From: Hydrolagus colliei
Lineage: Eukaryota
DNA: 64,000 nt
NCBI GenBank assembly: GCA_035084275.1
Contig: CM068746.1
Span: forward strand, 24,552,001-24,616,000
Direction of reading: 5' to 3'
Shown here: positions 11,288-60,834 of the stretch, in pieces
Layout: each line of letters starts with the position of its first letter
Numbering within the stretch: the stretch's first letter is position 1
Notes under the pieces: model-generated
The model's database searches: none
What the model was told of the DNA's origin: nothing
The model's input: only the letters and a program-made list of their open reading frames with translations
Position numbers and translations under genes: made by a program

Positions 11288-11512
11288 GTGAAAGCCAACT
11301 CTGTGAAGCAGGAGTTTGAGAAGCAAGATGAACTGAAACGTTCAGCCATGAGGGCAGTTGCAGCACTACTGACCATTCCTGAAGCAGAGAAGAGTCCACT
11401 TATAGGTGAATTCCAATCTCAAATAAGCTCCAACCCTGAATTGGCAGCCATCTTTGAGAGCATCCAAAAGGACTCTTCTTCCGCTAACTTGGAGTCAATG
11501 GACACTACCTGA
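11288..11512 (+). CDS. CAND1: CAND1 terminal coding exon 15
   Basis: gtcag| then [28 protein letters not shown]...ESMDTT and TGA at 11510-11512. Confidence 0.96.
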
Positions 11513-12379: not shown

Positions 12380-12589
12380 TATTTCTGGAATTTCAATATG
12401 TAGGTGGGATGCATGGAACTGTTTGGTTTGGATCCTCCAGCATGGTGATATTTCTACATGAGTGAGATCCAGCTGACCCCCACAAAAAAATTAATCTGAG
12501 GATGATTGAATCTGACAAACTCAAAATGGCATTACTGGTGGGGATAGGATAATGAGTCCAGGCTAGATACTATGGTTCGCCACCACCAA

Positions 12590-14461
12590 TCAGCTCCTCC
12601 GCCCCCCCCCCCCCGCCTCACTTCGCAGATCCTCTCCTCAAACGATTGTTGTGAGGAGATGCTGGAGTTCCTTGAGTCCAAAATTGAGAGAATCCACTCT
12701 GCGGTTTCCTCCCCCCACCACTCCTCCACCTCCGCGCCCTCATCAGTTACCTCAACCCCTACTCACCACCTATTTCACACTTTCAACCCCACCACCCCGT
12801 TTTCAGTCACAAAAATAATTACCTCCGTGAAACCCACCACGTGCTCATTGGACCCCATCCCCACCCCCCTCCTCTGCACCCAGCTCCATTTGTTAGCCCC
12901 GCTCATTTCTGACACCATTAACCTTTCCCTCTCCTCAGGCACCGTCCCTACCTCCCTTAAAACAGCCACCATCACCCCTATCCTGAAGAAACCCTCCCTT
13001 GATGCGTCGCAACCATCAAGTTATCGACCCATCTCCAACCTCCCGTTTTTATCCAAGGTCCTTGAAAGAGTGGTTGCCTCCCAGCTCCGCTCTTTCCTTT
13101 CAACTCACTCACTTTTTGAACCCCTCCAATCAGGTTTCCGCCCAATTCATAGCACAGAAACTGCCCTGGTTAAGGTTACAAATGACATCCTAACCGCCTG
13201 TGACCAGGGCTCCCTCTGTCTCCTCGTCCTCCTTGACCTGTCTGCTGCGTTCGACACAGTCAATCACACTCCTTCAACGTCTTTCCTCCCACCTCAACCT
13301 TCAAGGCACAGTCCTTGACTGGTTCCATTCCTATCTGACCCACCGTTTACATTTTGTTTCTTCCAACGGTTTTTCTTCAAACCCCCACACAGTTTCTCAC
13401 GGCGTCCCTCAGGGCTCTGTTTTAGGCCCCCTCCTTTTCACCCTTTACACGCTCCCTCTGGGCGATGTCATCCACAAACATGGGGTAAATTTCCACATGT
13501 ATGCGGACGATACCCAGCTGTACCTTTCTGCCTCATCCCTCAACCCCCAGACCATCGATGTTCTGACAACGAGTCCTGGACGAGGGACAACTTTTTGCAA
13601 TTGAACGTGAGTAAGACCGAGGCCCTCCTGATTGGCTCAAGACAGCGCCTCCGCACATCGGGCGCTGCCAGCCTCAACATCCAAGGCTGCACTCTCCACC
13701 TCACAAAGCCAATCAGGAACCTCGGCATCATGTTCGATCAAAAACTTTCCTTCCTCCCCCACATCCGTGCCTTGACCGGCACTGCTTATTTCCACCTGCG
13801 CAACATTGCCAGGCTCCGCAACTATCTTACCCCCCGCGCTGCCGAAACCCTCGTGCATGCATACATCACCTCACGGCTGTACTACGGAAACTCTCTCCTC
13901 GTCGGCCTCCCCAGTTCCTCCATTCACAGGCTGCAGGCCATCCAAAACTCTGCAGCCCGTGTACTATCCCGCACCCGCCTCCGTGACCACATAACCCCCA
14001 CCCTCGCTCATCTCCATTGGCTCCCCATCCTCCAGAGGATCGAGTTCAAGATCCTCGTCCTCACCTGCAAAGCCTTACACGCCTTGCCCCGCCCTATTTA
14101 ACCGATTTACTTTCCCCCTATAAGCCCTCCGTTCAACAGGACTTGGCCTGCTCCAAGCCCCCCGCCCGAACCGCCCCACCATCGGAGGCCGGGCCTTCAG
14201 TTTCTCCGCTCCCACCCTATGGAATGCCATCCCTCAATCCCTCCGTTTCGTTTCTTCCCTTTCCTCTTTCAAGGCCGATTTGAAGACTTTCCTCTTCGAC
14301 CGTGCCTTTTGTTCCACCCCGAACTCTTTTACCTCCCCTTCGTGTTTCACCCCTTCCCAAACACTCCCCTCTCAGCTCGGGTCATACACCTCCTGTGCAG
14401 CGCCTTGGGACGTCCTCCCGACGTGAAAGGCGCTCTATAAATGTAATTTGTTGTTGTTGTT
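12590..14461 (+). mobile_element. 5'-truncated L2-clade LINE with frameshifted reverse transcriptase
   Basis: ORFs 12572..13318, 13200..13604 and 13595..14101 carry [47 protein letters not shown] and HITPTLAHLHWLP; tail gtgaaaggcgctctataaatgtaatt(tgt)n. Confidence 0.95.
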
Positions 14462-17298: not shown

Positions 17299-17961
17299 AA
17301 CATTAGTCAGGAAGGATAAATAATTGATCTTTTTTATTCATTTACACTGTCAATTAATATGAGTTGTTGTAGTGTGATTCTCTGTCAGGGTGAACACTCA
17401 GAATATAAATAAAATTTTGCGAAGTATTATCTACCCTGAATATCTTCCAAATGCTACTTCCTTTATGTTTCATAATAACACTTTGGATTTGTTTTCAGTA
17501 TATAGTCTGAGCTAACCCTCCAATATAGTGTGGGAGATTGTGCTATTGGATCTACTGTAGTTCGATGAGACATTAAACTGAACTGTTTGGGTGAAATTTA
17601 AGATCTCATGTTAATATTTACATTTCAAACGGTATAAAAGTGTACATTTTGCCTTTTTTTTGTTTTGGATTAAGAACATGCCATACAAAAAGAAAGTAAT
17701 TGGACTTATCATGCCTGCTCTTCTCCACAGACCAAGCAACACCTATTCTATAATGAATTGCCACACAAATATATATATATAACCAGTAAAATTGTTCTGA
17801 ATAGATATTCCCCCAACCCTACAGAAATAATCCAGCTAAAGTATACTGCACTGTTTTGTCACTCAACACTGACATTTTACCCTGTTTGTATATTGCAATG
17901 GTGATTTTTGATGCTCTCTTTCTTTGATTGCTTCAGGAAAAGATTGAAAAAGCGTTGGAAC

Positions 17962-18027
17962 ATGGGGACTCTGCACAAGACCAAATTAATAAATGGAATT
18001 AAACAAAGAGTTCCGAGAGAGCTGTCT
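17962..18027 (+). CDS. Unrecognised 678-aa protein, coding exon 1 (exon begins at 17937)
   Basis: Pyrimidine tract plus ttcag| at 17936; strong Kozak aacATGg; MGTLHKTKLINGIKQRVPRELS; |gtaagt donor, phase 0. Confidence 0.68.
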
Positions 18028-18675
18028 GTAAGTGTCAGTGTACAGTATAAATATGGAAACAAAGAAAAAGACATTTGGATCTTCCTATTGAATAGATAAG
18101 AATAAGGAATGATTCCTATGATTAACCTACAAAGAATTTAGTTGTGTTTGTTAATGGTTCAGAGTAAGTGTCCTTTTTTGAATGATCTAAATATGATAAG
18201 TATCACTTGCAATGTAATATGTTCTTAATAGAAATTCAATGATTAACAGAATGAAGAGCAGTCGGTTGACTGTTAGTGTCAGGCTTCACATTAACAGTAA
18301 AATTATGGTCCTGTAAGTGATTGTGGAAAACATCTTAAACACCACTTTGGAGGGGGTAATAATGTAGCTCTCTCATTTATATTTATACACACCTTATATT
18401 ATACCAATACCTTTATATTTGAATAGATTCAATCAAATAGATAGTTGTACACTCAATAAGCCAGTCAGGAATTTAGGTGCCTTGTTCGACCAACCCTCAA
18501 CTGACCTTCCTCCCTCACGTTCGTGCCATGATACGCGCGCTGCCTTCCCACACATTCACAACATTGATGTGAAAGGCACTTTACAAATGTAATATTGTAT
18601 TGAATGCTTTGCTAATTTATACTTAGAATGAATGGTGAGAATAACTTCAAATTGCAAAATGTTTTATACTTACAG

Positions 18676-18727
18676 AATCGTGTTACAATGCATGAAAAAT
18701 CACAGCACATACTGAGAACAATAACAA
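18676..18727 (+). CDS. Unrecognised protein, coding exon 2
   Basis: ttttatacttacag| NRVTMHEKSQHILRTIT |gtaag; 52 nt; phase 0 to 1. Confidence 0.68.
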
Positions 18728-19442
18728 GTAAGATAAACATTTATGGAAATATTATCTGAAAAATAAAACAACAACTTGTACTAGTGTAGTATCCTTCAAA
18801 CAGAATAAGGTTTGGGATGGTTGGATGGTGAAACATATTTAGGATGAGTTACAGAATTGGTTTATGTACAGAACATGTAGTTTTGAATTGTTTTGCAGCC
18901 AGCGGTTACACCCATATACAATACGTACAAGCCAGAGTAACTATAGAATCCAGGTCAATGTGGTTGAAGGAAGCACAGACACAGAGGAAGAGTGGGGAGT
19001 CAATGTGAAGGGTTTGAAGGTGACAATGAGGATCTTGAATTTGATCCCCTGGGGACTGAGGAGCTAAGATGGGGTTGATACAGTTGCTGAACCTGATCAG
19101 GAGAGGACACAAGTAGTAGAGTTTGGGATAGTTGACTAGATGGTTGAACGTAGGTAGACAGATACTTAGGAAATAATGCATTATTAAAAAAAATGGTGAA
19201 ACAGAAAGGAAATGCTGTTAATATTTTCATATTATAACTGGAAAACCATACTAGATATTCATAAAATGTCAGATCCGATTTGAAGGATCGAATAGCGTAC
19301 TCCAGTGTCCTATAATGCTGAGCATATTTTCCAAAACAAATAATAAACTCAGATATCGCATTGAATAATATTAATAATAATCCTTGCATTCGATGTACCG
19401 TTTTATCATGTCTTTGAGATTAAAGCAAATTATATCATTTAG

Positions 19443-19695
19443 ATGGCTGCTTGGCCACAACAGAACACCAACTTGGCAGTGTTTCAGAAGCAAGGTCAAA
19501 TGTACAGACTTCAGTTGCACAACTTCCAAAACTCAAGTGTGCAGTCATTGAAGGAGATGGTGCACATGAAAGCAAAATGCCGTTGTCCAGCATTGTCGAG
19601 TTTATTATGGAAAGAAAGACAACCCTTAAATGGAACGGAGTTCAATGGCAGAGGACCAGTTACTCTATACCCAGAAGTCTCCCTTTGATTATAAG
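19443..19695 (+). CDS. Unrecognised protein, coding exon 3
   Basis: catttag| ... |gtaaag; 253 nt; phase 1 to 2; GCLATTEHQLGSVSEAR...LKWNGVQWQRTSYSIPRSLPLII (frame of ORF 19451..19699). Confidence 0.75.
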
Positions 19696-20875
19696 GTAAA
19701 GAAAATTCCACTGTTTACCTACTATGAAACTCACAGGCCATTGATATAGTTAGTGCAACATCAAAAGATACTCACTGGAAGATTTGTCAAAAGCACGTTA
19801 GGAAAGGCTCCAATGGTACGCGCTCTGAGACGCCTTCCAGCGTGGAGTACATTATATAAATCAAAGTTGTTGTTGTTGTAGTACAATAGATGGAGATGCA
19901 ACTCACGGACCGGAGGCTCACTGATTCCTATTCCAAGCCACTGGTGGGGGGTTGGGTCTGAAGTACAACCAACAGAGAGATACAACCACAGAAAAGAGCC
20001 CTGGGACCAGGAGCAAAGAGGCTTGTGCCAGTGGGGAGAAAATTAGAAAAAAATTGGATAAAAATTTATTAAATTAAAAAATGATCAATGATCATTTTTT
20101 TTGATCATTGATCAAAAAATGTGATCAATGATTAGCAACATTTGCATCATAATGCTTGCTTTTGTTTTTGAATGAAACTAGGTTTATAGTACTTCTAAAC
20201 TAAACAGTTTAGTTTTGAAGTAAACATTTATGTTTTTACCTGTTTGTTACAGTGGTTAAGTGCTGTAATTTCTTGACAAAATGCAGCTTCCCCATCATCA
20301 AATGTTTCAAAAATCCAATTTAGAGTTCCTATAAAATGTCACACCTTTCTCTGAAATACCAATTGATTCAAAAAGATACTTGTTATGTAAAAGAACAGTA
20401 CATGGATTTTGTGTTATGTAGAATATTATCAAAAAATTTAAAAGAGGGAATAATTAAAAATTTTACACAGGACCCTAATGTCGGATAACATTTCTGTTTG
20501 CTCTGAAGATATTTTGTCAACAGCTGCACAGTGTACAAAAACAGACCTCTGGATCTTCTGTTACTCAGTTAATTTCAGGGGCTACAAGAAGAGAAATAAT
20601 ATGGGAGTTGTTTAAAAGAGTATGGGAAAACAAACAGGAATTGTGTCTCCAACCCACACAGACAGATTTGTACTTTCCAGTTTAGTCCATTTCTTGACAA
20701 GTCTGCATGTTGCAGTGTAATGCAAAAATAAATGTTACAAATAGATTTTACATGTAAATTTGAGCAACTATTAATGTTTATGAAGACAATGTACAACAAA
20801 ATACAAAATTGCATTCATAGAGCTCAGAGTCAAAAAGCAGTATTTTTTAAAATGTTTATTTATTAATCCATTCAG

Positions 20876-21029
20876 CAGGAAACCTCTGCAAAATTCAACA
20901 GAAGATTCAACCCTTAAAAATCCCCAAAGCAATGACTGGGATGATGATGGAGAGGCTTTATCCACATCCCCATGTCCCGTGTCAGTTTCAGAGCAGATCA
21001 CTGAGTCAACCTCACCTAAACACTGCAAG
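20876..21029 (+). CDS. Unrecognised protein, coding exon 4
   Basis: ttcag|cag| tandem acceptor ... aag|gtacag; 154 nt; phase 2 to 0; RKPLQNSTEDSTLKNPQSNDWDDDGEALSTSPCPVSVSEQITESTSPKHCK. Confidence 0.75.
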
Positions 21030-21091
21030 GTACAGTCATTTTTCAAAAGAACAAATTGAGGGTTTTTCATGTTTCTCAATTGAGAGTCCTC

Positions 21092-21400
21092 GGGAGTCCT
21101 GTAGCTCAGTGGTTCGAGCACTCGCCTTGCAAGCAAGAGACTTGGGTCTGATTCCCGGAGAGCGAAACCTTGGGCAACTTTCCTTACTCTACATGCTTGA
21201 TAATAATCCCTCAAGAAGAAAACACAATAATAAATTGGTCACTTGTGGGACACTGCTATGCGCAATTGGCTGCCGTGTTTCGCCCTCAAATATACAGTCA
21301 ATTCACTTTATAGTATATTCTGTGAAGCACTTTGAGATGTCTAGATGATGTGAAAATTGCTATATCAAATGCAAAGATTATTATTATTATTATTATTATT
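21092..21400 (+). mobile_element. tRNA-derived SINE, full length, in an intron of the unrecognised gene
   Basis: gggagtcctgtagctcagtggttcgagcactcgccttgcaagc head, ccttgggcaactttccttactc, (att)n tail. Confidence 0.88.
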
Positions 21401-21786
21401 GGATTGTGTGGCTTGGACATGGTGATTCTAATTCAAAACACATTTTTTTTAGTTATTTCTTAAATGAAAGTTACACTTGATGGAATTGTGCAAAACACAA
21501 ACACAGCAGTCAGTGTCAAAGATAGTTGTTAAAAAAATTAAATACTGGAAAGAAGATGAACACTCCAAGTTTGATTAAGCGCTCCGAGATGCCATCTGGG
21601 GTGAAGGGCACGATATAAATGTAAGTTGTTGTTCCAAAGCAGTGACATATCTTAGTGCTGAGTTAGATGGTAGATGAACCATTCTTGTGGTGTATAATTG
21701 ACATAATCACAAACCCAGCTACATGTTACAGCCTTAGAATACATTTCAGACTGTGTGCTGTTGATGATAGTTTCTTGTAAATTTAG

Positions 21787-21986
21787 GTAGGAACGAAGTT
21801 GCTGAGCAGGTCTCAAGCAAAGCGTGGAAAACATTATGGTGATGAAGATGTCAAAATTGTGAAGAGTGTGCAAAGCTCAGCAGGATTTGTTGCGAGCGTG
21901 AAATGGTCAAAAGGATGTAAGAGAAAACTTGCTATCGGCCAGCGGCTTCCTCCAATAGCCATTTTTTCAGAAGCAGAAAATAGCAG
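21787..21986 (+). CDS. Unrecognised protein, coding exon 5
   Basis: atttag| ... cag|gtgat; 200 nt; phase 0 to 2; VGTKLLSRSQAKRGKHYGDEDV...GQRLPPIAIFSEAENS (ORF 21799..21990). Confidence 0.75.
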
Positions 21987-22828
21987 GTGATTGGATTCCA
22001 TTGTAAAATATTGTTTCACTGTTGCTAAATAATGGTAATCCCACTAACGGAATTAAACACAGCTATTTATATTCAAGCAAGGTGATCTGGGGAAAACACA
22101 CAACATTTTAGCAAGACTATGGGTTTAAAGGGATCCATAAATTGTGTTCCATCTCCAGGTAGGAGGTTTGCTAGTTTGTTTGTCTTTTGAAGGGTGTCTC
22201 ACAATAGAGTGGAATGTGGCTCCATAAAACTGGACAGAAATTACTGAACCATAATTTCAGAACAGTGGAAAATCTGAGCATTTCATTCTTTGGCTTTTAA
22301 CCTGCCAAGATTTTTCTTGGAACCAAAACATATCATTTTGCACTGAATTAATGAATGGAAATAAAATGAAATCTCCCTATGTACTTAGAGGTACACATGG
22401 CCATGCCTTATTTTCTCCCACTCGTCCCTTTATTTTCCCCCCTGAAAGTGGTGACGTATGCAGGGGTACAATTTACCAGGTACTGGGTGCCTTTGCCCAA
22501 GCTAATCTTCTTATGTGCAGTTAGACAATGAGCCTGGGTGATCCCAGCAGCCACCGAAGTCTGCACATTATACACAATACATCCCAGCATTTAAACATGG
22601 TTTAAACAGCTTACATAACAAATATCAAGATTTGCATTTGCTTTGCGTAACTCACATATTAGATTTCCAAAGCATACACTTGGTTTACAAAACTCACATA
22701 ATAGACTCCCAATGGCGCCTCAATTCCTTACCCTAGCATTATTTGAAGACTTATGATGGATCACAAAATCATTTGCATGAACATTTAGAAATCTCTAATA
22801 TATTGTTTTTTTGGTGCAAAATCTGCAG

Positions 22829-22948
22829 ATCAGGTCTAAATGTCAGTGGTTCCAGCTGCCGCAAATTCCCCATTGTCCCTTTGGAACGGAAATCAAAACC
22901 CATCTCGAGCAAAAGATTTGAGCAACCAATTCCAGGCAATGGCTGCAG
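22829..22948 (+). CDS. Unrecognised protein, coding exon 6
   Basis: ctgcag| ... cag|gtata; 120 nt; phase 2 to 2; SGLNVSGSSCRKFPIVPLERKSKPISSKRFEQPIPGNGC. Confidence 0.72.
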
Positions 22949-23514
22949 GTATATGTCCACGCATTCTCATTTTGATTTAGTGATCATATGTACCACTGTG
23001 ATAATGATTCATTGTCCTTTAGTGTAAATAGTCATTCATTCATAGAAATATAATATAGTTTAACTTGTCGTGGCCTAACACACCACCTCTACAAACAAAT
23101 TGAAACTTAAATAATTAAGACAAGATATCAGGTTTAGATCATGAGTGAAGCAGTTTATGATCCACAAAAGCTTCTCGCTCCTTTGGTCCCAACTGATACA
23201 CGCAGCCTTTCTCAACATCAACACTTAGCCCTATTTTACCCAGATTATCCAGTGCTTAGTTAACCTTTCCTCTCTCACCCAACATGCTGCCGTTCTCTTC
23301 ATTCTGAAGATTAGTGCAGTTAAGCCTGTTGATGTCTTGGATGATAACCAAAGAGGCCAGGGACATACAGCAAATCTGAGATAGCCAAATGGAGGGATCA
23401 AGTGGAGAAGTTGGGTAAGAGAAGTTCAGTGGGGAAGAAGTGGTAGGAGAAGATCCTTCATTGTAAATAACGAATTGTATTTTCATTTTGATCATGTTTT
23501 AAAACATTTTTAAG

Positions 23515-24706
23515 ATCTGAACTGAAGCAAATCTCTAGCCAGCCTTACCGGGAGGGCGTCAATCAGGAATTGGAGGTGGAGCATAGGTCTGTGAGTCAGG
23601 CTGAAAATCGAGTGACAGACACTGGCTCTCACAAGTTGTGCTTTGTTGATGACTCTGCTGGAAATGGAGAGAATGTGGTCGGTGAGAAAGCTATAAACAC
23701 AGGCTTAATTCAGGAAGTGAGACCTAAAATGACCATCCATTGTCCTGTTGCATTCCCTATGATCCTGAGCTGCGATAAGCCAGAAGAAAAGAGCAACACA
23801 ATAGCTAAGAAACCCAAAAGAAAACTGCAGCGAACTATATCAAACTCCTCACTGGCAACCTGTTTAAGCAAAATGTCTTGTGCAAGCAAAACCTCAACTT
23901 CTTATAGTACAGGCAGCAAAAGCTCTGATAGCAAATCCAAAGTTAGTCAAACCACGAGTCAGGGTACAGAAGAGCACCTTATCTCAGACTTGGTTGATGT
24001 TGTGCATGAAAAGAGTAAGAGTCTACATATTGACACTGGAAGGGCTGTTCCTTTGGTGATGGGTGATGCAAGATGCCTCCGCCAGAGACATCCACTAAAG
24101 TCCTCACTGAAGAAGACATTTGACTGGCGTGGTCATTCCCAGAGAATTCTAGAAGAACCCAAGGCAACAAAAGACACAAAGTGCAACAGTATAAAGAAGG
24201 ATTTGGATACATGTGTAGAAAAGTCCTCTGCAAATAAGCAGAATGCACAAGAGACTGTTCAACCTCTTGATCTAGCATCAAGCCAAATCATGCAGGTTTG
24301 CGCATACTCGCTTCTTGAGAAATCTACAGAGATTTGCATTCAGTTCAATTGCTGTCCGCAGCAATGCTTGATGTTTGTGCAGCATAGTCCACTGCTTGCC
24401 CAGCAACAACAAAACCGGCCCAACCTAATGTCAGGTACAATGCACCAACATGGCAGCAGTCAACCAAAACCTACTGTGAATATTGAATCAAATACAACTC
24501 TAGATAATTGCTACTATTGCCAGAATTATAACGTTCAAATTCACAGGAACCAGAATCAGTTGCAACTCCCAGAGTCAGTGGAGTTGTTGTGGCCCAAAGA
24601 ATCTCCTTCACCAGAGCGAACTATTGAATTGTCCAGTTCTTGTGGAGGTAAAGTCCCTAAAATAACCATGACTTGCCCTACTCCGATTCCATATAAAACA
24701 CCTTAA
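23515..24706 (+). CDS. Unrecognised protein, terminal coding exon (Ser/Lys/Gln-rich, likely disordered)
   Basis: ttttaag| acceptor in phase 2, in frame with ORF 23570..24706 (378 aa); 1192 nt open with no transposon similarity that I recognise; TAA stop; ATTAAA at 24902-24907. Confidence 0.85.
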
Positions 24707-27700
24707 CAATAAGATAGGATCAGGTTGATTGTTTCAGTATTGTTTTATTTATGCAAAAACAAACTCTGACAGATCATTCTATCCATATTATATTGATGGA
24801 ACAAGAAAGATAACCGTTTCCAATGCCATATTTTTCATAAGAACACATTTGTATTCAATTAATGTAAATTATATTTGATGAGCCAAGTCTCTTCAGTGTT
24901 TATTAAAAAAATCAGAGAGAGAGAACCCTGTAGAAGCATTTAAAATAGAAAATTGTTGGGGAAAAATTCCATCAGGATGTAGATTTAATATTAATCCTTG
25001 CATTTGACATAGCACTTTATCACATACCAGTAGTCATTTTTTACTCAAAATACTTCACAGGATTTTACTGTAAAATGCTGTGACTATGTATGCAAACTTG
25101 GCAGACAATTTACACACAGCAATGTCCCGATTTTATCTTATTGTTGACCAGAACACCGGAAACAACTTACTCTTTCTTCAAATATTTCAGATTCTTCAAA
25201 TTATTAAATATAGCATTTTTGAGCCAGTTTTCTGCAAATTATTTTGAGAGCTAAGAAACCAGCTTCACATTTAAGACTGAATTCAACAATTTGCTAAATT
25301 CTGGAAGCTCTGAATTCTTTATGAAGAGAGTAAATCTAGAACCAGGTGGAATTCCTCCCCATGAGCAGATATACCACTACCTGAAACCTGTAGATTACAT
25401 AAAAATAAACACTTGGGAGTATTTCTCTAAAGTAATAATAAGAATCTTTGCATTTGATGTAACACTTTTCACCTCTTCTAGACTGTCAAAGCGCTTCACA
25501 GAATATACTGTAATGTGAATTGACTGTATATTTGTGGGCACCTGACACCTGAACAACATCTGAAATGAGTAACCAGGAACGGTGGTTATGGCAATAGCTC
25601 CTCCTTTCCCATGGTTTCCCATGTGTAACTGGGTCCAAAGATCAATCATTAGTTTTTACTGAGTTACTGTTTTAACTGGAATAGCAGTGAGGTACTGTGG
25701 CTGGATTAGCAGTGAGATCCTGCAGCTGGATTGATTGACCCTGGGTTAGAGAGGAGGAAAATTCAGATGAGATCATTATTTAGTGAAGTCTATCTTTTGG
25801 AAGTGCAAATATTTAGATCCATAATGAAAACAGACAAAGTCTAACATATGGTGCCCCCAATGTATAATCCACCAACACTTAGTGGCTATTGGATGAGTTA
25901 CTGATGGACTGTTGTTGCTTGTGGATTGCTGCCTTCGTAAGAGAAGGAACGGAGAGATAAATGGAAATTAAGAAAGATGTTTGGAAGAGAAAATAACAGC
26001 TAAACAATCCATTTTATTTGGTGCTAGCTTGAAAACAGCAATGTCCTATAAACAGCCATGAAGTGACTAGGCAATTTTATCTGAGGGAATATTGGCTATC
26101 ATTCATAGATACCATATAAAACTTTCCCTGAAATATTTTTTGTATGGCTTTCCAAAATATCATTGTATGTAGGATTATCTACTGACACTATGACTAAAAG
26201 GAAATGTTTTGCCTTCTTTTTCTGTAATAAGGGGAATGTATTTAATTCTTGTGCAAAATCTTCCCACTGTGCAAATGACAACAATGTGACTTACATTAGC
26301 AGTTTTGCGTAATATATATATTTTTAAAAATAAGATGACTTCTTATCCAGGAATTAAATCAGCAGTGTGTGCAGTCGTTGCATTAAACTCCAAGGGGAGT
26401 CACTGCACAGCCAGAACTTGCAAACAGAACCTCTGCATTTGTGAACTCTCAGAGACTACAAATAGCAATACATTAGCACAGTGAGTCTTGGCTGGGCTGC
26501 TCCCTCAAAATAATTGTTATCATTTCTGGGTTCAAATGAATTTGTTTTGACTGTCAATTCATTCACTAATGGTATCCAATGTTCTATATTTGAAATGCTT
26601 GTTGGAAGAATGCAATTTATAATGTTTACCAATATTTTGCAGTATGGAAGGAGCAGATATGGCTCAAATTATCTTGAATAATTTTTTTTTGCCTTTTTCA
26701 CTGTGAGACATCACATCATCAGCACGTCAGTTTCGATGTGTTTAGAATGAGTTAAATTCAGTCTAGTTTGAAATGACACCTGAATTTGATGCATATCCAC
26801 ACAATAGTGTGGAAATCCTACAGAGCAATTTAGCACTAGCGACAATTTTCATTTATATAGTACCCTTCACACAGGAGCTTGGAATGAAGCACAATCACGG
26901 AGTTAGATGCTGACAGTGGAGATAAGCTTGGTCGAGATTGAAGAGGTAGGTCTAAAAGCAGCAAGAAGACCAAATGGCACGACTGAGAAAACGTTTTCGG
27001 GAAATAAGAATCGTTTACTGCAATACTTTATGCATAGATTGTAGATAGCTTCCACTGTGAAGGAACTACAGATGAAACATATTTTTACAGCAGCTTCAGA
27101 TTCCTGTCAACTGATGGATTATTATGTAAAAGCCACCCATGCTAGTTAAAGGTTAATTACTGTTTGACCCTTGGGGAATTGTTATTTTAGTAACAGTGGA
27201 ATGGAAGGGGAATTAATTTCCAGTTATGGAATATTCATGATACTCCCAAATTAACAACTTGCATTCATATGGTGCCCTTCACATAGGGTAAAGTCTCGGA
27301 GTGCTTTGCAGGATACTTTAATGAGCCATGTTCTTTCAAAATAATTTTTCTTCTATGAAAAGTGTTTTACTTGTGTTCACAAAATCGTTTGACCTTTTCT
27401 ATAACTGGATATCAATTTAATTATAACCTTTCCATTTGATGTAGTGTCTACTCAACTAAAACACATTTCAGGTAGAATAATTACTGTAAAGTGCTGTGAC
27501 TTGTAGGTGAACACAGCAGACAGTTTATGCAAAGAAAGGATCCGCAAATGGCGTGATGTGAATGATCAATTAATCTAGTAGATTGTTAGCCAAGACGCTG
27601 AGAAAAACTTGATTCTCTTTTGGATAATAGAATATGCTAGTAAATGTGCAGCTGAACAGACAGATATGATCGATCTTAATTTAACATGGTTAGGAATTCC

Positions 27701-37446: not shown

Positions 37447-38491
37447 GCTGCTTTTCTGACTGGAGGGAAATGTACAGTGGCGTCCCCAGGGATTGGTATT
37501 GGGACCACTGCTCTTTTTAATTTATATTAATGATCTGGACTTGTGTATAGGGAGTACCATTTCGAAGTTTGCAGATGACAAAGTTTAGGAAAAATAGTAA
37601 ATAGTGAGGAGGATAGTACTCATCAGCAAGAAGATATAGAGCGAATGGTAAAATGGGCAGACGCATGGCAGATGAAGTTTAATGTAGAGAAATGTAACAT
37701 GATACATTTTGGGAGGAGAAATGAGGGGAGGCAATATAGGCTAGGTAGAACAATTTTAAGGGATGTGAAGGAACAGAGAGACCTGGGAGTTTGTGTGAGC
37801 GATTCTTTGAAGGTGGCAGGACAGGTAGACAAGGCTATCAAAAAAGCATACAGGATACTGGGCTTTATAAATAGGGGCATAAAGTACAAAAGTCAGGAAG
37901 TTCTGACTAAACTCCACAAAACTTTGGTTAGGCCTCAGCTAGAGTACTGTTACAATTCTGGTCACCACACTTTAGGAAGAATGTTAAGGCATTGGAAAGG
38001 GTGCAGAGGAGATTTACTAGGATGGTACCAGGAATGAGGGACTTCAGCTATGAGGAAAGGCTAGAGCGGCTAGGTTTATTCTCATTGGAATAAAGAAGGT
38101 TGCAAGGAGATCTAATAGACATTTATAAGATCATGAGGGGATTCGACAGAATAGATAGGGAAAAACTGTTTCCATTGGTAGGCATTATCAGTGACACGTG
38201 GTCACAGATTAAAAATATTTTCAAAAAGAAGCAGAGGGGAGGTGAGGAGAAATCTTTTCACTCAGCGAGTTGTTCGAATCTGGAATGCATTGCCTGAAAA
38301 GGTGTTGGAGACCGATTTGATAACAACTTTTAAAAGAGAGGTAGAATATTTATTTGAGGAGGACGGGTTTGCGCGGTTATGGGGAGAGAGCTGGGGAGTG
38401 GGATTAAATAGCTATTTTCAAAGAGCCGGCACAGACTCATTGGGCCGAATGGCCTCCTTTTGTGCCATAAGATTCTATGATTCTATGATTC
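37447..38491 (+). mobile_element. 5'-truncated CR1-clade LINE
   Basis: SGVPQGLVLGPLLFLIYINDLD, KFADD, WQMKFNVEKC, LVRPQLEYC, FTQRVVRIWNALP; tail with (gattctat)n 8-mer repeat typical of CR1. Confidence 0.93.
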
Positions 38492-39670
38492 AATCCTCAT
38501 ATGACCTGTGTGTTCTGATGAGGCCACTATAAGGAGTAATATAGAGATGCATTGTATTTCCCTTTGCTGACTGCTACTAGTTACTTTTAGAAATACAACA
38601 GCAACAGTTTTGCAGTGGCAGGACATGGGAGGACATCTCAAAGCTCTATACAGAGCTGACTGAAAGACTAGGGAGTTAGGGGTGGGAGAGGGCAGAAAGA
38701 GGGCCATAACCAAAATCAATTTTTTTTTAAAAAACCTTTTAAGGCAGGTTTTAAAGGTGGAAAAGTCCTTTGCTGGGACATGAAGCAGGCATGTGTTCAC
38801 CAAGTGGAGGGAGAAGCCATTTTAATGTACATGTACAGCCATTTCCAAGGGTTAAAAGAATACTTGGCTAGATGCATTCCTCTGCATTTCACCTATTGAA
38901 TCTGCCATGCAATATTTGTAGCTATCACTAAACATCTCTTTGTGCTTTTCCTGATCATTGCTTCTAGTTCCCATATTTTCTTTCTCTGTGTGTCATTTGA
39001 TGCATCTGTTTTTCTAACATTGTTCACTCTTTCATTTTACTTCACTTTTTCTACATTGTTTTCACATTTGGGGAATTGAAGAGAGCACAAAACTGAACTG
39101 TTTACTATTCAAGACTGTAGTCTTGTGCTTTTTTTTACACACACACTGTGCACACCAAGCAGTTGACACCTCTACAAGTGAGTGTTACTCTGATCTGATC
39201 CAGTCAGAAATAGTCCTGTGAAGTGACACACAGTAAACGGTAACAACTCACAAACGACTGCAGCAAATTCTGTACCAACTAAGAACTAAATACTGTAATA
39301 AGGTAGGCACCTGAAGTGCAATGTAATGAATTCTGCAGCATTTTCAAAGGAATTTGCAAATTAATTTAGCATCTGTTGAATTCTTGGAAATTGTGTTCAG
39401 TTACCCTCTACATGTGGTAATATTTTCGGCGTTGGGCTTCCTGAAAATCATTGTTGGTGTAATGTTTCTCTTGTCAGCTGTCAACACTTGATATCAATAG
39501 ATTGGATGAGAGCATTCTGTGAATGCACCCGGCACTATTTGTTGAAAACCTGTCTGAAGTAAGATGCAGCAACTTGTTTGCTGGGCAATTTGGTCCAAGC
39601 ATGTAATGAAATAAATGGCGTTTTATTTAAATGCTGCTATGATCACTTACTGGGGAAAGTCACTGCTTGG

Positions 39671-46361: not shown

Positions 46362-47589
46362 TAATAATAATAATCCTTGCATTTGTTATAGCATTTTTCA
46401 CATCTTCTAGAAACATCTCAAAGCATTTCACATAATATACTGTAAAATGAATTGACTGTACAGGTAAACCTCTATTTACGACGGGGTTGCGTTCCTGAAA
46501 AACTGTATGTATATCGAAACGTCCTAAATCGAAACACAATTTCCCATGCAGTCCTATTATATAACCAGAGAGTGTTCTTTTCACAAAATTTTCGGACATT
46601 AACCCACTAAATAACACACAAAATCACTCAACATAACACACAAATTAACACACATAGGCAAGAAGGGGTAAACTGTATGGTATATTACGCTGGTTCTGAT
46701 CCTCAATCCAGACACTCAGCATTCTTTCCATGTTTTCCATCACATCACGCCTATGTTTTTCTAATCTGCTTGCACCTATAGCTGTAACACACCTTGAACT
46801 TGCCAGTATATTGTCCTTATTCTGTTTTATAGTAGCCACCGTCGATCTAGCTAGCCCTAAAGCCTTCCCGATGTCCGTACCTTTTTCACCAGAATCAATG
46901 CGCTTTATCACCTCCAATTCGATATTTAAAGTGGTGACTTTGTGGGGTTTCTGGCCGCTAGCAGTATTACCGCTGCTCATTTTATACTTACTGTTGCCTC
47001 TCCCCCGACTTGCTAGAAGCGCAGTAGAGGCTGTAAATCACTCGGGAATGTTCGGAAATTAGTGTAATACTGACGTGGCGTGGTGTTGCTTCAAAATCAG
47101 CCGGCTTTTAAACAATTATGTGGCGACATGCTATTGGCCAGTTCAAATGCTTGGATTTACCTGCAAGTACACTATGGGCTGTGTGTATGGACAAAAAGGA
47201 TGCAAGAAATGTGACCGCAATATTCAAAATATGTCCCGCTCATGCGCAAAAAAAATTTGGGTCCTTAAAACAAATCCAAGAGTCGTATATCGATCAAAAG
47301 GTGTTAAAAAATTATGGTCCTTCAATCGAAATGTCCTAAATAGAAGTGTCATAAATCGAGGCTTACCTGTATATTTGTGGGCAAAACGAAGCTACAAATT
47401 GTGTACAGCAGTGTCCCACAAACAGTCATGGATTGAAGTACCCAATTTCTTATTATTTTTCTTGAAGGTTTATTATCAGGCATGTGGAGTAAGGAAACTT
47501 GCCCAAGGTTTCTCCCTGACTTGCCGGGAGTTGAACCCAGGTCTCTCTCTAGTAAGGCAAGTGATCTAACCGCTGAGCTACAGGATTCC
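46362..47589 (-). mobile_element. tRNA-derived SINE split by a DNA transposon (SINE parts 46362-46460 and 47370-47589)
   Basis: SINE text aattgactgTA|TAtatttgtgggc is continuous across the insertion. Confidence 0.88.
46461..47369 (-). mobile_element. Non-autonomous Tigger/pogo-like (Tc1/mariner superfamily) DNA transposon
   Basis: TA flanks; TIRs caggtaaacctctatttacgac and gtcataaatcgaggcttacctg; ORF 46645..46980 resembles the N-terminal CENP-B-type HTH (IGKALGLARSTVATI; MERMLSVWIEDQNQRNIP); no DDD catalytic domain. Confidence 0.9.
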
Positions 47590-49930: not shown

Positions 49931-50845
49931 ACAACAACAACAACAACAATTTACATTTATAGAGCGCCTTTCACGTCGGGAGGACGTCCCAAGGCGCTGA
50001 ACAGGAGGCGTGTGACCCGAGCTGGGAGGGGAGTGTTTGGGAAGGGGTGAAACACGAAGGGGAGGTAAAAGAGTTCGGGGTGGAACAAAAGGCACGATCG
50101 AAGAGGAAAGTCTTCAAACCGGCCTTGAAAGAGGAAAGGGAAGAGACAAAACGGAGGGATTGAGGGATGGCATTCCATAAGGTGGGAGCGGAGAAACTGA
50201 AGGCCCGGCCTCCGATGGTGGGGCGGTTCGGGCGGGGGGCTTGGAGCAGGCCAAGTCCTGTTGAACGGAGGGTCCGGGTGGGCGTGTAGGGGGAGAGTAG
50301 ATCGGTTAAGTAGGATGGGGCAAGGCCATGTAAGGCCTTGTAGGTGAGGACGAGGATCTTAAACTCGATCCTCTGGAGGATGGGGAGCCAGTGGAGACGG
50401 GCGAGGGTGGGGGTTATGTGGTCGCGGAAGCGGTTGCGGGATAGTGTACAGGCTGCAGAGTTTGGGATGGCCTGCAGCCTATGAATGGAGGAACTGGGGA
50501 GGCCGACTAGGAGAGAATTTCCGTAGTCCAGCCGTGAGGTGATGTATGCGTGCACGAGTGTTTCGGCAGCGCGGGGGGTAAGATAATTACGGAGCCTGGC
50601 AATGTTGCGCAGATGGAAATAGGCGGTGCCGGTCAAGGTGCGGATGTGGGGGAGGAAGGAAAGTTTTTGATCGAACATGATGCCGAGGTTCCTGATTGGC
50701 TTTGTGAGGTGGAGAGTGCAACCTTGGATATTGAGGCTGGCAGCGCCCGATGTGCGGAGGCGTTGGCTTGAGCCAATCAGGAGGGCCTCGGTCTTATTCA
50801 CGTTCAATTGCAAAAAGTTGTCCCTTGTCCACGACTCGATGTCGT
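49931..50845 (-). mobile_element. 5'-truncated L2-clade LINE, same family as 12590-14461
   Basis: ORF 49971..50813 is nearly identical to 13595..14101 and uninterrupted; (aac)n tail at 49931; candidate TSD tgtgtta at 49924-49930 and 50855-50861. Confidence 0.95.
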
Positions 50846-53800
50846 TACCATCGATGTGTTACCAGTGATAGTGCTTGAAAATCCAATTTACCACATTTTG
50901 CAATGCTAAAATCCAAGCTTATTTATCTGGTAAATCATTGTTTGAATTTTACTTGTCGTCAATGCTATAGTGTAATGTGAGGAAAAAGCCGGGATGATAG
51001 GATCAGTTGACAACGTATATTTTCTTCCTGTTTAAAATGTCACAGGCATTTGCAGGAAAGACACCAGGTGTTATTTGTAGCTCTGAATGGTACTAACATC
51101 CCGCCAGCTTGTTTTGCATTGAATTAATTGCTGTTCAACCATCTTTCATGTAGACACTTCATATCAGTTCATTTCCATATCATGGGCTAACTAACAAATA
51201 GTTGATCATGATAATAATCCTTGCGTTTGATATAGCACATTTTAGGAGAGTGCCTAGAAGTGCTTCAAATAACTTTATTGTGAAATGTAGTGACTGTATT
51301 TTTATATACAGGCAATATTTTTATGTTTCTAATTCTTTTGTTCATTCCTCACTCCCTCCATCCTAACTTTGGTGGCTAAGCTTCCTTCCCCTGCCGTCTT
51401 GAACTCTATTTCAAAACCTCTTTACCTCGCTTCCTTCACAGCCCTCCCAAAAAGATACCTTTCCAATAATGCATCCTTAGAGTCCTTAGTTCTCACATGT
51501 TTCACTTTGCTTGGTGCTCCCTATCATATATGTTAAGTGATTTGAGATGTTCATGTATTGTGAAGATCACCAGGTGAATGCAAGTTATTGTTTGCAAATT
51601 CCTATTGACTGTGATTGATGAGCTAGTGAATGGGTGTATTAAGCTGGGTTGCTGAGCAGAAAGTTTCCATGTCTCTCGGTTTCCATTTGTGTAGTTAACA
51701 AATTAGTTATCTTATCACATTCATGTACAGAGATGTTCCATTGTCTCTTCAGTGATATGGACAAGCAAATGTTACACTGCATCTCCCAAGACAGCAGGAA
51801 CTCTGTTGCTAGGATGTTTTTTCACAAGATCATAAAATTGGTTTGGATCAAGAAGGCCTTTGTCCTATCCAATGTCATCTCTCCAGAACATCAGAAAGAT
51901 GCTTGATGTTACAATGAGTCCAATGTCCTGGCCTCTACCTTTAAATTGTATTGTTGCAATGGTGCTGAGTCTGACATTGTGATTGATTTCCAGCATGTGT
52001 GACGCCAAGTAACCTTCAGTCTGCAGGTAAGCCCTCATTTCACTTTCAATCAAAATGAACTTCCACAACAGAATAACCTTCACCTGAGACCATCTGATGG
52101 AAGGGCAGAAAAGCAACCACCATCCTATCGGAAAGCAAACAGACAGACAACAAACAGAAAATATTTTCTTTGTAGATTTTATTTATATATATATTAAAAA
52201 TCAGTCCAATCTGTTGGCGTTTGTGGATGGAGAGGGGTGGGTGGAGGGCAGACATGACCTCCAAATCTTGTCAGATGATTGTCACCAAACATAACATGGA
52301 ATTTGCATCACTCTTGACTGGTATATCCTCATGAGATTTCTTGACAGTGACTCACAATACTGAGATGTCAAAGTTTACAGGTTTCTCTTTGACAGACAAA
52401 AACCCAAGAAGCTTTGAATCCAAACTTAATACCAGGAAGTCACAAGAGACATGTGTGTGCCAGATGTTCAAATCAATTAGCCTCAGTGATTTTTCATATG
52501 TTTCCTGTTGTTTTTGTTCTATAGCCATCGATATAGTTTTTGCATTTTTTTTCAAAGAAATGATAAGCTTGCTGAGGTGAAATTAACTGCACCTTCAGTG
52601 ACCGTCAAGCTACTTGAATCAGCATGACAATTCTTAGTATCACATGTAAAGTTTATTTGTCCCAGACTTGAGATCTATAACACAAGAATTGTCTTTTAAT
52701 AGGCTTTAGAGAACATTGGAATCCAATTGTTTCATTTTAAACTCAAATTAAATATATATACAGTATACATATATATATATTTAATTTGACAATCTGCAAC
52801 TCTCAATTTATGAATGGCCATTGTCATCATTATCACTGCAGGGACTGAATATAAGTATTCCTGTGCTGTCATACAAAAGCTGCAGGAAATTGACAGTATT
52901 ACTCATAAGAGCTTAATTATCTTAGACAGTTCAGAATGTGAAATGTAAATAAAATGATTCATTAAATTTACCTGCCAAATGTTGACACTGTGTGCATGAA
53001 TGGGATAAAGGCTGACAGAACATTTCATTGCAGTGAAAAGGCCAAGATGCAAGCAGAATTAATCCTAAAAATAAACTTTTGCACAGTCTAGGTTTGATGA
53101 TTTTGTATGTGTTTTTTTTATTTCTGAGGGGGAACAATTCTGTGGGAGTGGGAAAGAGTGGGGATGTGGAATGAAATCCTGAAGCAATATTTGGAGTCTG
53201 TTCATTGTCACATTTAACCTTTCCCAGCCAAAACATGACAGCAATCAAAATGTGATAAAGAAACAAAATGCGTTCCATTCCCCTTAGAAGGAGTTTACTT
53301 GAACAGCATAAAGTGGGGGTACTATGTTCAGCTAAATAATCTGTAAAGTTATTATGTCACTATTAGATTCTACAGTAACATTCTCACATTCAATGGACCA
53401 AGGAAGATTACAAATGAATCTTTTCACTTCATTTATTTTGTTTCAACCCTCCTTCAAGCTAGAGAATTGATTGGAAATGATAATCTGTGACTCATACATC
53501 TACCTACTCTTACCATCACCCTTTGGATCTCCATCCCATAGTCCCTTCACCGTGTTCCCCACCTTGCTTCCTTCAAGGCACTTATCAAGACCCTCCTCTT
53601 TGACTGTGCATTCGGTCACTCCCCTACCCCTACCCTCCCTGCTCTAGGGACATCCTCCCAATGTGAAAGGCCCTATACAAATGTAATTTGTTATTGTAAA
53701 ACTTGTTAAAGTTCAGAGAAATGCTAGCATTCCATGTAAAGGACACGATATAAATGCTATTCATTATTTTGTGCTATTCATCACAATTTGTTGGGATCGT

Positions 53801-59956: not shown

Positions 59957-60834
59957 CAGGTAAGCCTTGATTTACGACGCTTCTATTTAGGACACTTCAA
60001 TTGAAGGAGCATCATTTTTTAATACCTTTTGATCAATATATGACACTTGGATTTGTTTTAAGGATAAAAAAAATGTTGGCGCATGCACAGTACATATTTT
60101 GAATATCGTGGTCACATTTTGCGCATCCCTTTTGTCCATACACACAGTCCATAATGTAAATCCATAGAGTAAATCCAAGCATTTGAACTGGCTAATAGCA
60201 TGTTGTCACATCATTGTTTAAAAGCCGGCTGATTTTGAAGTGGCACTACGTCAGTATTACAGTAATTTCCGAACATTCCCGAGTGATTTACAGCCTCTAC
60301 TGTGCTTCTACCAAGTCGGGGAAGAGACAGCAGTAAGTGAAATGAGCAGCGGTAACACCGCTAACGGCCAGAAACCCCGCAAAGTCATCACTTTAAATAT
60401 CAAATTGAAGGTGATAAAGCGCATTGATTCTGGTGAAAAAGGTAAAGACATCGGGAGGGCTTTAGGTCTAGCTAGATCGACGGTGGCTACTATAAAATAG
60501 AATAAGGACAATATACTGGCAAGTTCAAGGTGTGTTACAGCTATAGGTGCAAGCAGATTAGCAAAACATAGGAGTGATGTGATGGAAAACATGGAAAGAA
60601 TGCTTAGTGTCTGGATTGAGGATCAGAACCACCATAATATACCATACAGTTACCCCCAAAATACCCCTTCTTGCCTTTGTGTGTTATGTGTGTGGTTTTG
60701 TGTGGTTTAAGATCTGAACATTTTGTGAAAAGAACGCACCTCTGGTTATATAATGGGACTGCACGGGAAATCGCGTTTCGATATACATACAGTTTTTCAG
60801 GAATGCAACTCCGTCGTAAATAGAGGTTTACCTG
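59957..60834 (+). mobile_element. Second copy of the non-autonomous Tigger/pogo-like transposon
   Basis: TA flanks; TIRs caggtaagccttgatttacgac and gtcgtaaatagaggtttacctg; HTH reading frame from ATG 60342 stops at TAG 60498-60500. Confidence 0.9.

Follow-up and report, generated by a model that had tools for sequence, protein, structure and literature searches.

The closest described systems to the gene reported here are the calcineurin-binding tails of CABIN1 and calcimembrin (C16orf74; LDVPDIIITPPTP). In CABIN1, residues 2146-2155 (PEITVTPPTP) form the minimal calcineurin-binding peptide, and phosphorylation of the threonine at position 9 of this decamer by p38 tightens binding approximately threefold (PMC9166766). 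Calcimembrin uses the same PxIxIT groove and gains approximately 20-fold from the same +3 phosphothreonine (PMC12612047). Peptide scans indicate that a hydrophobic residue at position -1, Lys or Arg at position 2 and a phosphorylated residue at position 9 each raise binding (PMC6728138), and natural calcineurin binders vary well beyond the consensus (PMC9928118). The gene in question lies in a 64,000-nucleotide (nt) stretch of the Hydrolagus colliei genome (assembly GCA_035084275.1, contig CM068746.1, positions 24,552,001 to 24,616,000; hereafter the window), downstream of CAND1, and its seven coding exons encode a protein of 678 amino acids (aa). Near the C-terminus stands the decamer PKITMTCPTP (aa 663-672; 24656..24685, + strand), a PxIxIT-like putative calcineurin docking motif with Thr-Pro at positions 9-10. 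Because this decamer aligns with that of CABIN1 and the affinity-raising flanks are kept, we propose, with a probability of roughly 0.6, that the product is a disordered protein of the CABIN1/calcimembrin type that anchors or competitively inhibits calcineurin and is tuned by phosphorylation.

Conservation was scored by block on a 32-row full-length alignment with a mean of 0.32, on which the decamer (0.91) is shown to be the most conserved part of the protein. It is followed by an RT[VI]EL block (0.69; aa 650-654, 24617..24631), which stands eight residues before the decamer, by PLKSSLKK (0.63), which in the window protein lies in the PLKSSLKKTFDW block (aa 475-486, 24092..24127) and is the third most conserved window of the alignment, and by a central ITFxSP block (0.62; aa 351-359, 23720..23746), all on the + strand. 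The motif PxIx[MI]TxxTP occurs in 76 of 87 distinct homologue clusters; among the 11 clusters lacking it, seven are N-terminal fragments of 68-242 aa, one is half of an Aldrovandia model that was split, with the motif in the adjacent model, one is a sequence changed at the motif itself and two are the sturgeon and Denticeps models. P1, I3, T4, T6, T9 and P10 are invariant in the 74 motif-bearing sequences, the core of Pro1, Ile3 and Thr6 is present in 74/75 sequences, and in 40 chosen motif-bearing rows the only invariant columns are those of P-x-I-T-x-T-x-P-T-P. Position -1 is L, V or F in 73/74 and position 2 is K, R or S in 70/74, and the Thr-Pro sequence site at positions 9-10 is found in all 74.

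Seven of the ten residues are identical between the window decamer and CABIN1 PEITVTPPTP (P1, I3, T4, T6, P8, T9 and P10), and in both proteins the motif lies near the C-terminus with a Thr-Pro phospho-site at 9-10. Unlike CABIN1, the family has Met for Val at position 5, Cys or Arg for Pro at position 7 and a basic rather than an acidic residue at position 2, and it has no homology to CABIN1 outside the motif. The MEF2-binding segment (PF09047) was found on the CABIN1 exon of the Hydrolagus genome itself and was absent from the 5 + 21 family members tested. In that CABIN1 exon (C28:10945564) the calcineurin decamer does not differ from the human sequence (PMC9166766). Calcimembrin is a disordered protein centred on a PxIxIT motif with a +3 phosphothreonine, as is proposed for this family, and it likewise has a hydrophobic residue before the motif Pro. 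It differs in that the family has neither the LxVP-PxIxIT composite (0/75) nor an MGxxxS/T start for N-myristoylation (0/75), and in size, since calcimembrin is a microprotein and family members span 330-740 aa. The PKIIIT of A238L and the engineered PKIVIT share the PKI start with its affinity-raising basic position 2 but have Ile at position 5, unlike the family; the Dallia orthologue reads PKIIMT. On these comparisons the gene is neither CABIN1 nor calcimembrin, and its product likely works like their calcineurin-binding tails.

Several points weigh against calcineurin docking. The case is made from sequence alone, and the motif counts are partly circular because one of the searches was seeded with the motif. 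Position 5 is Met in 73/74 sequences and Ile in one, so that only 1/75 (one orthologue, PKITIT) fits strict PxIxIT. No binding value for Met at position 5 was found in 12 of the 30 supplementary files of PMC6728138, of which the other 18 may bear on it; Met is hydrophobic and was favoured in one docking regression (PMC9928118). At position 7 the family has Cys (46) or Arg (28) and never Pro, so a full PPTP is not formed; this and the Met at position 5 depart from both CABIN1 and calcimembrin, and every substitution within the PPTP of CABIN1 disrupted binding in cells (PMC9166766). Sturgeon (522 aa) and Denticeps (310 aa) have long models without the motif, and the LxVP composite of calcimembrin is missing throughout. 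A scan of the Hydrolagus genome for PxIT[hydrophobic]TxPTP returned four matches, those in long frames being only this gene and CABIN1, and its control returned three, so chance suffices to produce the bare pattern. Finally, neither CABIN1 nor calcimembrin contains an equivalent of the RT[VI]EL block, which hardly varies within the family. RT[VI]EL-x8-PxITMTxPTP might instead be a single bipartite docking motif for a different partner, its likeness to PxIxIT being convergent, and the fixed spacing of RT[VI]EL from chimaera to catfish would fit this, as would a stricter conservation of Met5 and Thr4 than PxIxIT scans call for and the complete absence of Pro7. However, salmonids, pike relatives and herrings have lost or changed RT[VI]EL but retain the decamer, and the preferences at positions -1, 2 and 9-10 agree with those measured for calcineurin; we regard a bipartite motif as rather unlikely.

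The same C-terminal residues also recall LxxPTPh, a known motif for end-binding (EB) proteins (PMC10162426), which would target the protein to microtubule plus ends. MTCPTPI fits the spacing of this motif with Met in place of Leu, and MxxPTP[ILV] occurs in 11/75 sequences, but the Leu position is Met in 73/74 and Ser replaces the hydrophobic residue at the last position in 60/74. The SxIP motif is present in only 3/75, and EB binding would leave the invariant P-x-I-T ahead of the LxxPTPh-like part unexplained. We consider this explanation very improbable.

Outside the decamer the protein is predicted to be mostly disordered, with no folded domain, in agreement with the original prediction of a largely disordered product without a recognised domain. 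AlphaFold, applied with 32 rows to the orthologue of Callorhinchus milii, gave a mean predicted local distance difference test score (pLDDT) of 43, with 604 of 713 residues below 50; it placed three short helices at the N-terminus and scored residues 701-710, the motif block, at 82. The Atlas model of the gar orthologue has a pLDDT of 0.33, and on both models the motif sits within a region predicted to be disordered. No Pfam family exceeded its cut-off on any exon or family member tested, and a Leg1 match on exon 5 (E 0.0011) was below cut-off and rejected. The PDB sequence search returned no match to the family profile and two chance matches to the motif profile. In the ESM Atlas the best feature score (0.82) fell within the range of shuffled proteins, with no structure match and nothing for the C-terminal part, and no transmembrane segment was found (best 19-residue hydropathy 0.88). 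Other features that had been drawn from the sequence of the window protein fared less well. The basic patch KKPKRKLQR, read as a nuclear localization signal, is kept in 0/8 other cartilaginous-fish proteins and that reading was rejected; the Cys/Gln-rich C-terminal part is not the conserved part, and the conserved decamer had been overlooked. The recurring LPx[IL] pattern is enriched in the window protein (3 observed against 0.41 expected, shuffle P 0.0085, for a pattern picked after being seen); cartilaginous fishes keep the first two repeats and ray-finned fishes the third.

The two central blocks resemble RVxF, SILK and FxxP, which are docking motifs of PP1 and PP4 (PMC8786283), and the protein could on this account serve mainly as a targeting subunit of PP1 or PP4, acting via R[IL]TFxSP and the SILK-like LKS[SAV]LKK. 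The central block is RITFQSP-like in relatives (RVxF-like and FxxP-like), with [IL]TFxSP in 47/75 sequences and an LKSxLK-type block in 48/75. An RVxF-type match is found in 31/75 sequences, the window protein, in which Ile replaces the Phe of the central block, not among them. Strict SILK occurs in 0/75, and conservation of both blocks (0.62-0.63) falls below that of the decamer. We consider a role mainly in PP1 or PP4 targeting very unlikely.

If the product does dock on calcineurin, positions 1-6 of the decamer would, by analogy with CABIN1 and calcimembrin, occupy the PxIxIT groove of calcineurin A by beta-strand pairing, and a proline-directed kinase would, by the same analogy, phosphorylate Thr671 (position 9) and raise the affinity. 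In that state the protein might keep calcineurin at a location determined by its other short motifs or, alternatively, compete with substrates such as NFAT for calcineurin; it may thus be a scaffold, an inhibitor or itself a substrate. The Hydrolagus genome encodes calcineurin A. Calcineurin A-like exons lie on four of its contigs (C1, C15, C19 and C44), one of them confirmed against the PDB; mammals have three calcineurin A genes, one fewer than the contigs with such exons.

The seven-exon gene beside CAND1 is real, as judged from its sequence and its homologues. The protein of Callorhinchus milii (XP_007903184.1, 713 aa) is 81% identical across 676 aligned residues and matches every exon, which argues against a chance reading frame. 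The first coding exon (17937..18027) carries the ATG at 17962 after a 25 nt leader, with A at -3 and G at +4, and its start Met is common to the Callorhinchus, Scyliorhinus and Rhincodon models. It is followed on the + strand by exon 2 (18676..18727), which is four codons shorter than its Callorhinchus counterpart, exon 3 (19443..19695), which holds LPKL, a predicted short helix and LPLII, exon 4 (20876..21029), exon 5 (21787..21986), which holds RLPPI, the symmetric exon 6 (22829..22948) and the terminal coding exon (23515..24706), which encodes aa 282-678 plus the TAA stop. Identical residues relative to Callorhinchus number 16/22, 14/17, 73/84, 42/52, 50/66, 35/40 and 320/397 for exons 1 to 7, respectively. 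AG precedes exons 2-7, GT follows exons 1-6, the phases run 0,1,2,0,2,2 and the joined exons form 2037 nt with a single terminal stop. These exon intervals, the strong Kozak context of the ATG and the position directly downstream of CAND1 are as originally predicted; what the prediction lacked is that the ATG exon is internal and that a further, decayed exon exists. A pyrimidine tract and an AG (17935-17936) end 25 nt upstream of the ATG, so at least one further 5' exon lies upstream, for which 15201, 15501 and 16516 are candidate donors by sequence. Candidate poly(A) signals on the + strand are ATTAAA at 24902 and 25203 and AATAAA at 25404 (range 24902..25409). One DNA run kept as contigs showed four coding differences, two silent and two replacing, a number uninformative on selection.

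The decayed exon (20579..20665, + strand) is 87 nt long, matches Callorhinchus residues 128-156 at 76% and contains an in-frame TAA, and its donor reads AT rather than GT. Callorhinchus, sharks, rays and sturgeon have its counterpart, the segment after exon 3, as coding sequence. Its phase is 2-2, so skipping it leaves exactly the 678-aa frame, and the mRNA of Hydrolagus colliei likely skips it; no alternative letter was found at this exon in one DNA run, possibly of the window's own sample. The exon provides a view of frame-neutral exon loss at an early stage of recent decay. It might also be taken as the first lesion of a gene that is decaying in Hydrolagus colliei, in which inclusion via a cryptic donor, a GT being available 4 nt further on, would truncate the protein. 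The stop and lost donor, with damage that must be recent since the exon is still 76% identical to Callorhinchus, and the loss of the central-block Phe in the window protein are in line with decay, but both lesions fall within 87 nt and the 2037 nt remain open with intact splice sites. Moreover, the exon is frame-neutral and ray-finned relatives beyond sturgeon have no sequence of it, and in a quick tree of 26 chosen rows, which follows the species tree, the branch of the window protein (0.097) is no longer than that of its sister Callorhinchus (0.11). We consider a decaying gene very unlikely. Exon 6 is present in Callorhinchus, Pristiophorus, Scyliorhinus and gar and missing in the ray, skate, Rhincodon and Stegostoma models, a patchiness that may reflect either repeated loss or alternative splicing.

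The family was gathered by three word-seeded searches, one of which used the motif itself and scored the best 8000 candidates, and by a full HMMER scan of 1.84 billion representatives, which gave 32 matches at E <=0.001; together they yielded the 87 clusters. Species names are attached to 63 of these, from chimaera, sharks, rays, sturgeon, gar and bowfin and, among teleosts, from bonefish, arapaima, mormyrid, herrings, milkfish, otophysans, salmonids and pike relatives. The best match of each of the 24 unnamed clusters, among which three of the smallest HMMER matches are counted, is a teleost (56-100%). No named cluster came from tetrapods, coelacanth, lungfish, bichir or spiny-rayed fishes, a result confined to the 63 named clusters and, for one search, the top 8000 candidates, with no genomes of those groups read; the absence from tetrapods, lobe-fins and spiny-rayed fishes suggests loss. 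Within the searches made, the gene is fast-evolving and limited to cartilaginous and ray-finned fishes, so the earlier description as lineage-restricted and fast-evolving holds on both counts, with a range wider than chimaeras. Between the window and Labeo rohita, CAND1 exons are 72-100% identical and the family protein aligns only over a 26-aa motif block, and teleost forms are about half the length of the window protein. The gene is less novel than its earlier label of unrecognised implied: many fish genomes contain orthologues that are annotated as uncharacterised proteins, zebrafish si:dkey-39a18.1 (LOC557637; NP_001020665.2, A1L1M3) among them. The Callorhinchus protein is labelled 'micronuclear linker histone polyprotein-like', for which Pfam gives no support. 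In salmonid orthologues a tandem repeat of 17 residues is expanding mid-protein, and one of these orthologues is mislabelled titin. Relatives of the gene are transcribed: a 643-aa skate-like protein, encoded on a 2285-nt contig, spans what corresponds to several exons, and AAI29133.1, a cDNA-type accession, is attached to the zebrafish record. Literature searches found no paper naming si:dkey-39a18.1, although supplements, which lie outside such searches, may list the gene, and searches with motif strings gave no relevant paper. A broader version of the calcineurin proposal, which we put forward tentatively and think doubtful as a whole, is that of an ancient jawed-vertebrate phospho-switched anchor with a non-canonical PxIxMT core, which would join CABIN1 and calcimembrin as the third natural PxIxIT-xPTP regulator and would have been kept from chimaeras to pike and lost separately in lobe-finned vertebrates and spiny-rayed fishes, with PP1/PP4 recruitment via the central motif in bony fishes.

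The gene is single-copy and sits between CAND1 and DYRK2. A search of the Hydrolagus genome returned one match, and a paralogue search added two weak non-coding matches only. The last coding exon of CAND1 (11288..11512, + strand, stop at 11510-11512) matches Labeo CAND1, an earlier CAND1 exon in the window carries Pfam TPR_CAND1, and 6.4 kb separate the CAND1 stop from the ATG of the gene on the same strand. A large exon of DYRK2 lies 54 kb beyond the stop of the gene, also on the same strand (contig 24631126-24632733). Adjacency to CAND1 was seen in two cases, the window and the Labeo model KAI2665451.1, which fuses CAND1 (aa 1-1123) with the orthologue (aa 1193-1526), so both adjacency and strand are shared with this carp. 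The last ~100 CAND1 residues are missing from that model, and the fusion is likely an annotation error. DYRK2 is a proline-directed kinase; a functional link between it and the gene was considered, and adjacency alone was counted as no evidence. The CAND1-DYRK2 linkage holds from elephant shark to human, and the GRIP1-CAND1-DYRK2-MDM1 block is otherwise stable (PMC5033493).

Repeats are scattered over the window. Broken retroelement copies, presumably of long interspersed nuclear element (LINE) type to judge from their translated frames, lie at 12548-14430 (+), between CAND1 and the gene, and at 49957-50858 (-), and similar copies are frequent across the flanking 400 kb. At 37579-38532 (+) lies a remnant that weakly matches reverse transcriptase (RVT_1, E 0.053), and a transposase-like remnant with a CENP-B N-terminal helix-turn-helix (E 2e-8) occupies 46645-47037 (-), a second copy resembling it at 60308-60622. 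In intron 4, a weak Rfam tRNA match (21102-21158, +; 30.7 bits) within a very high-copy repeat is likely the head of a tRNA-derived short interspersed nuclear element.

These results give a testable function to an orphan gene that is present in zebrafish. If binding proves true, a natural high-affinity calcineurin regulator would be added to those described and the PxIxIT consensus would widen to Met at position 5, so that motif scans demanding I, V or L would miss partners. The gene would then represent a signalling regulator kept in fishes for more than 400 million years and apparently dropped in tetrapods, within a gene block that is otherwise stable. Its value lies in a concrete prediction that can be tested in zebrafish and in an apparent double loss.

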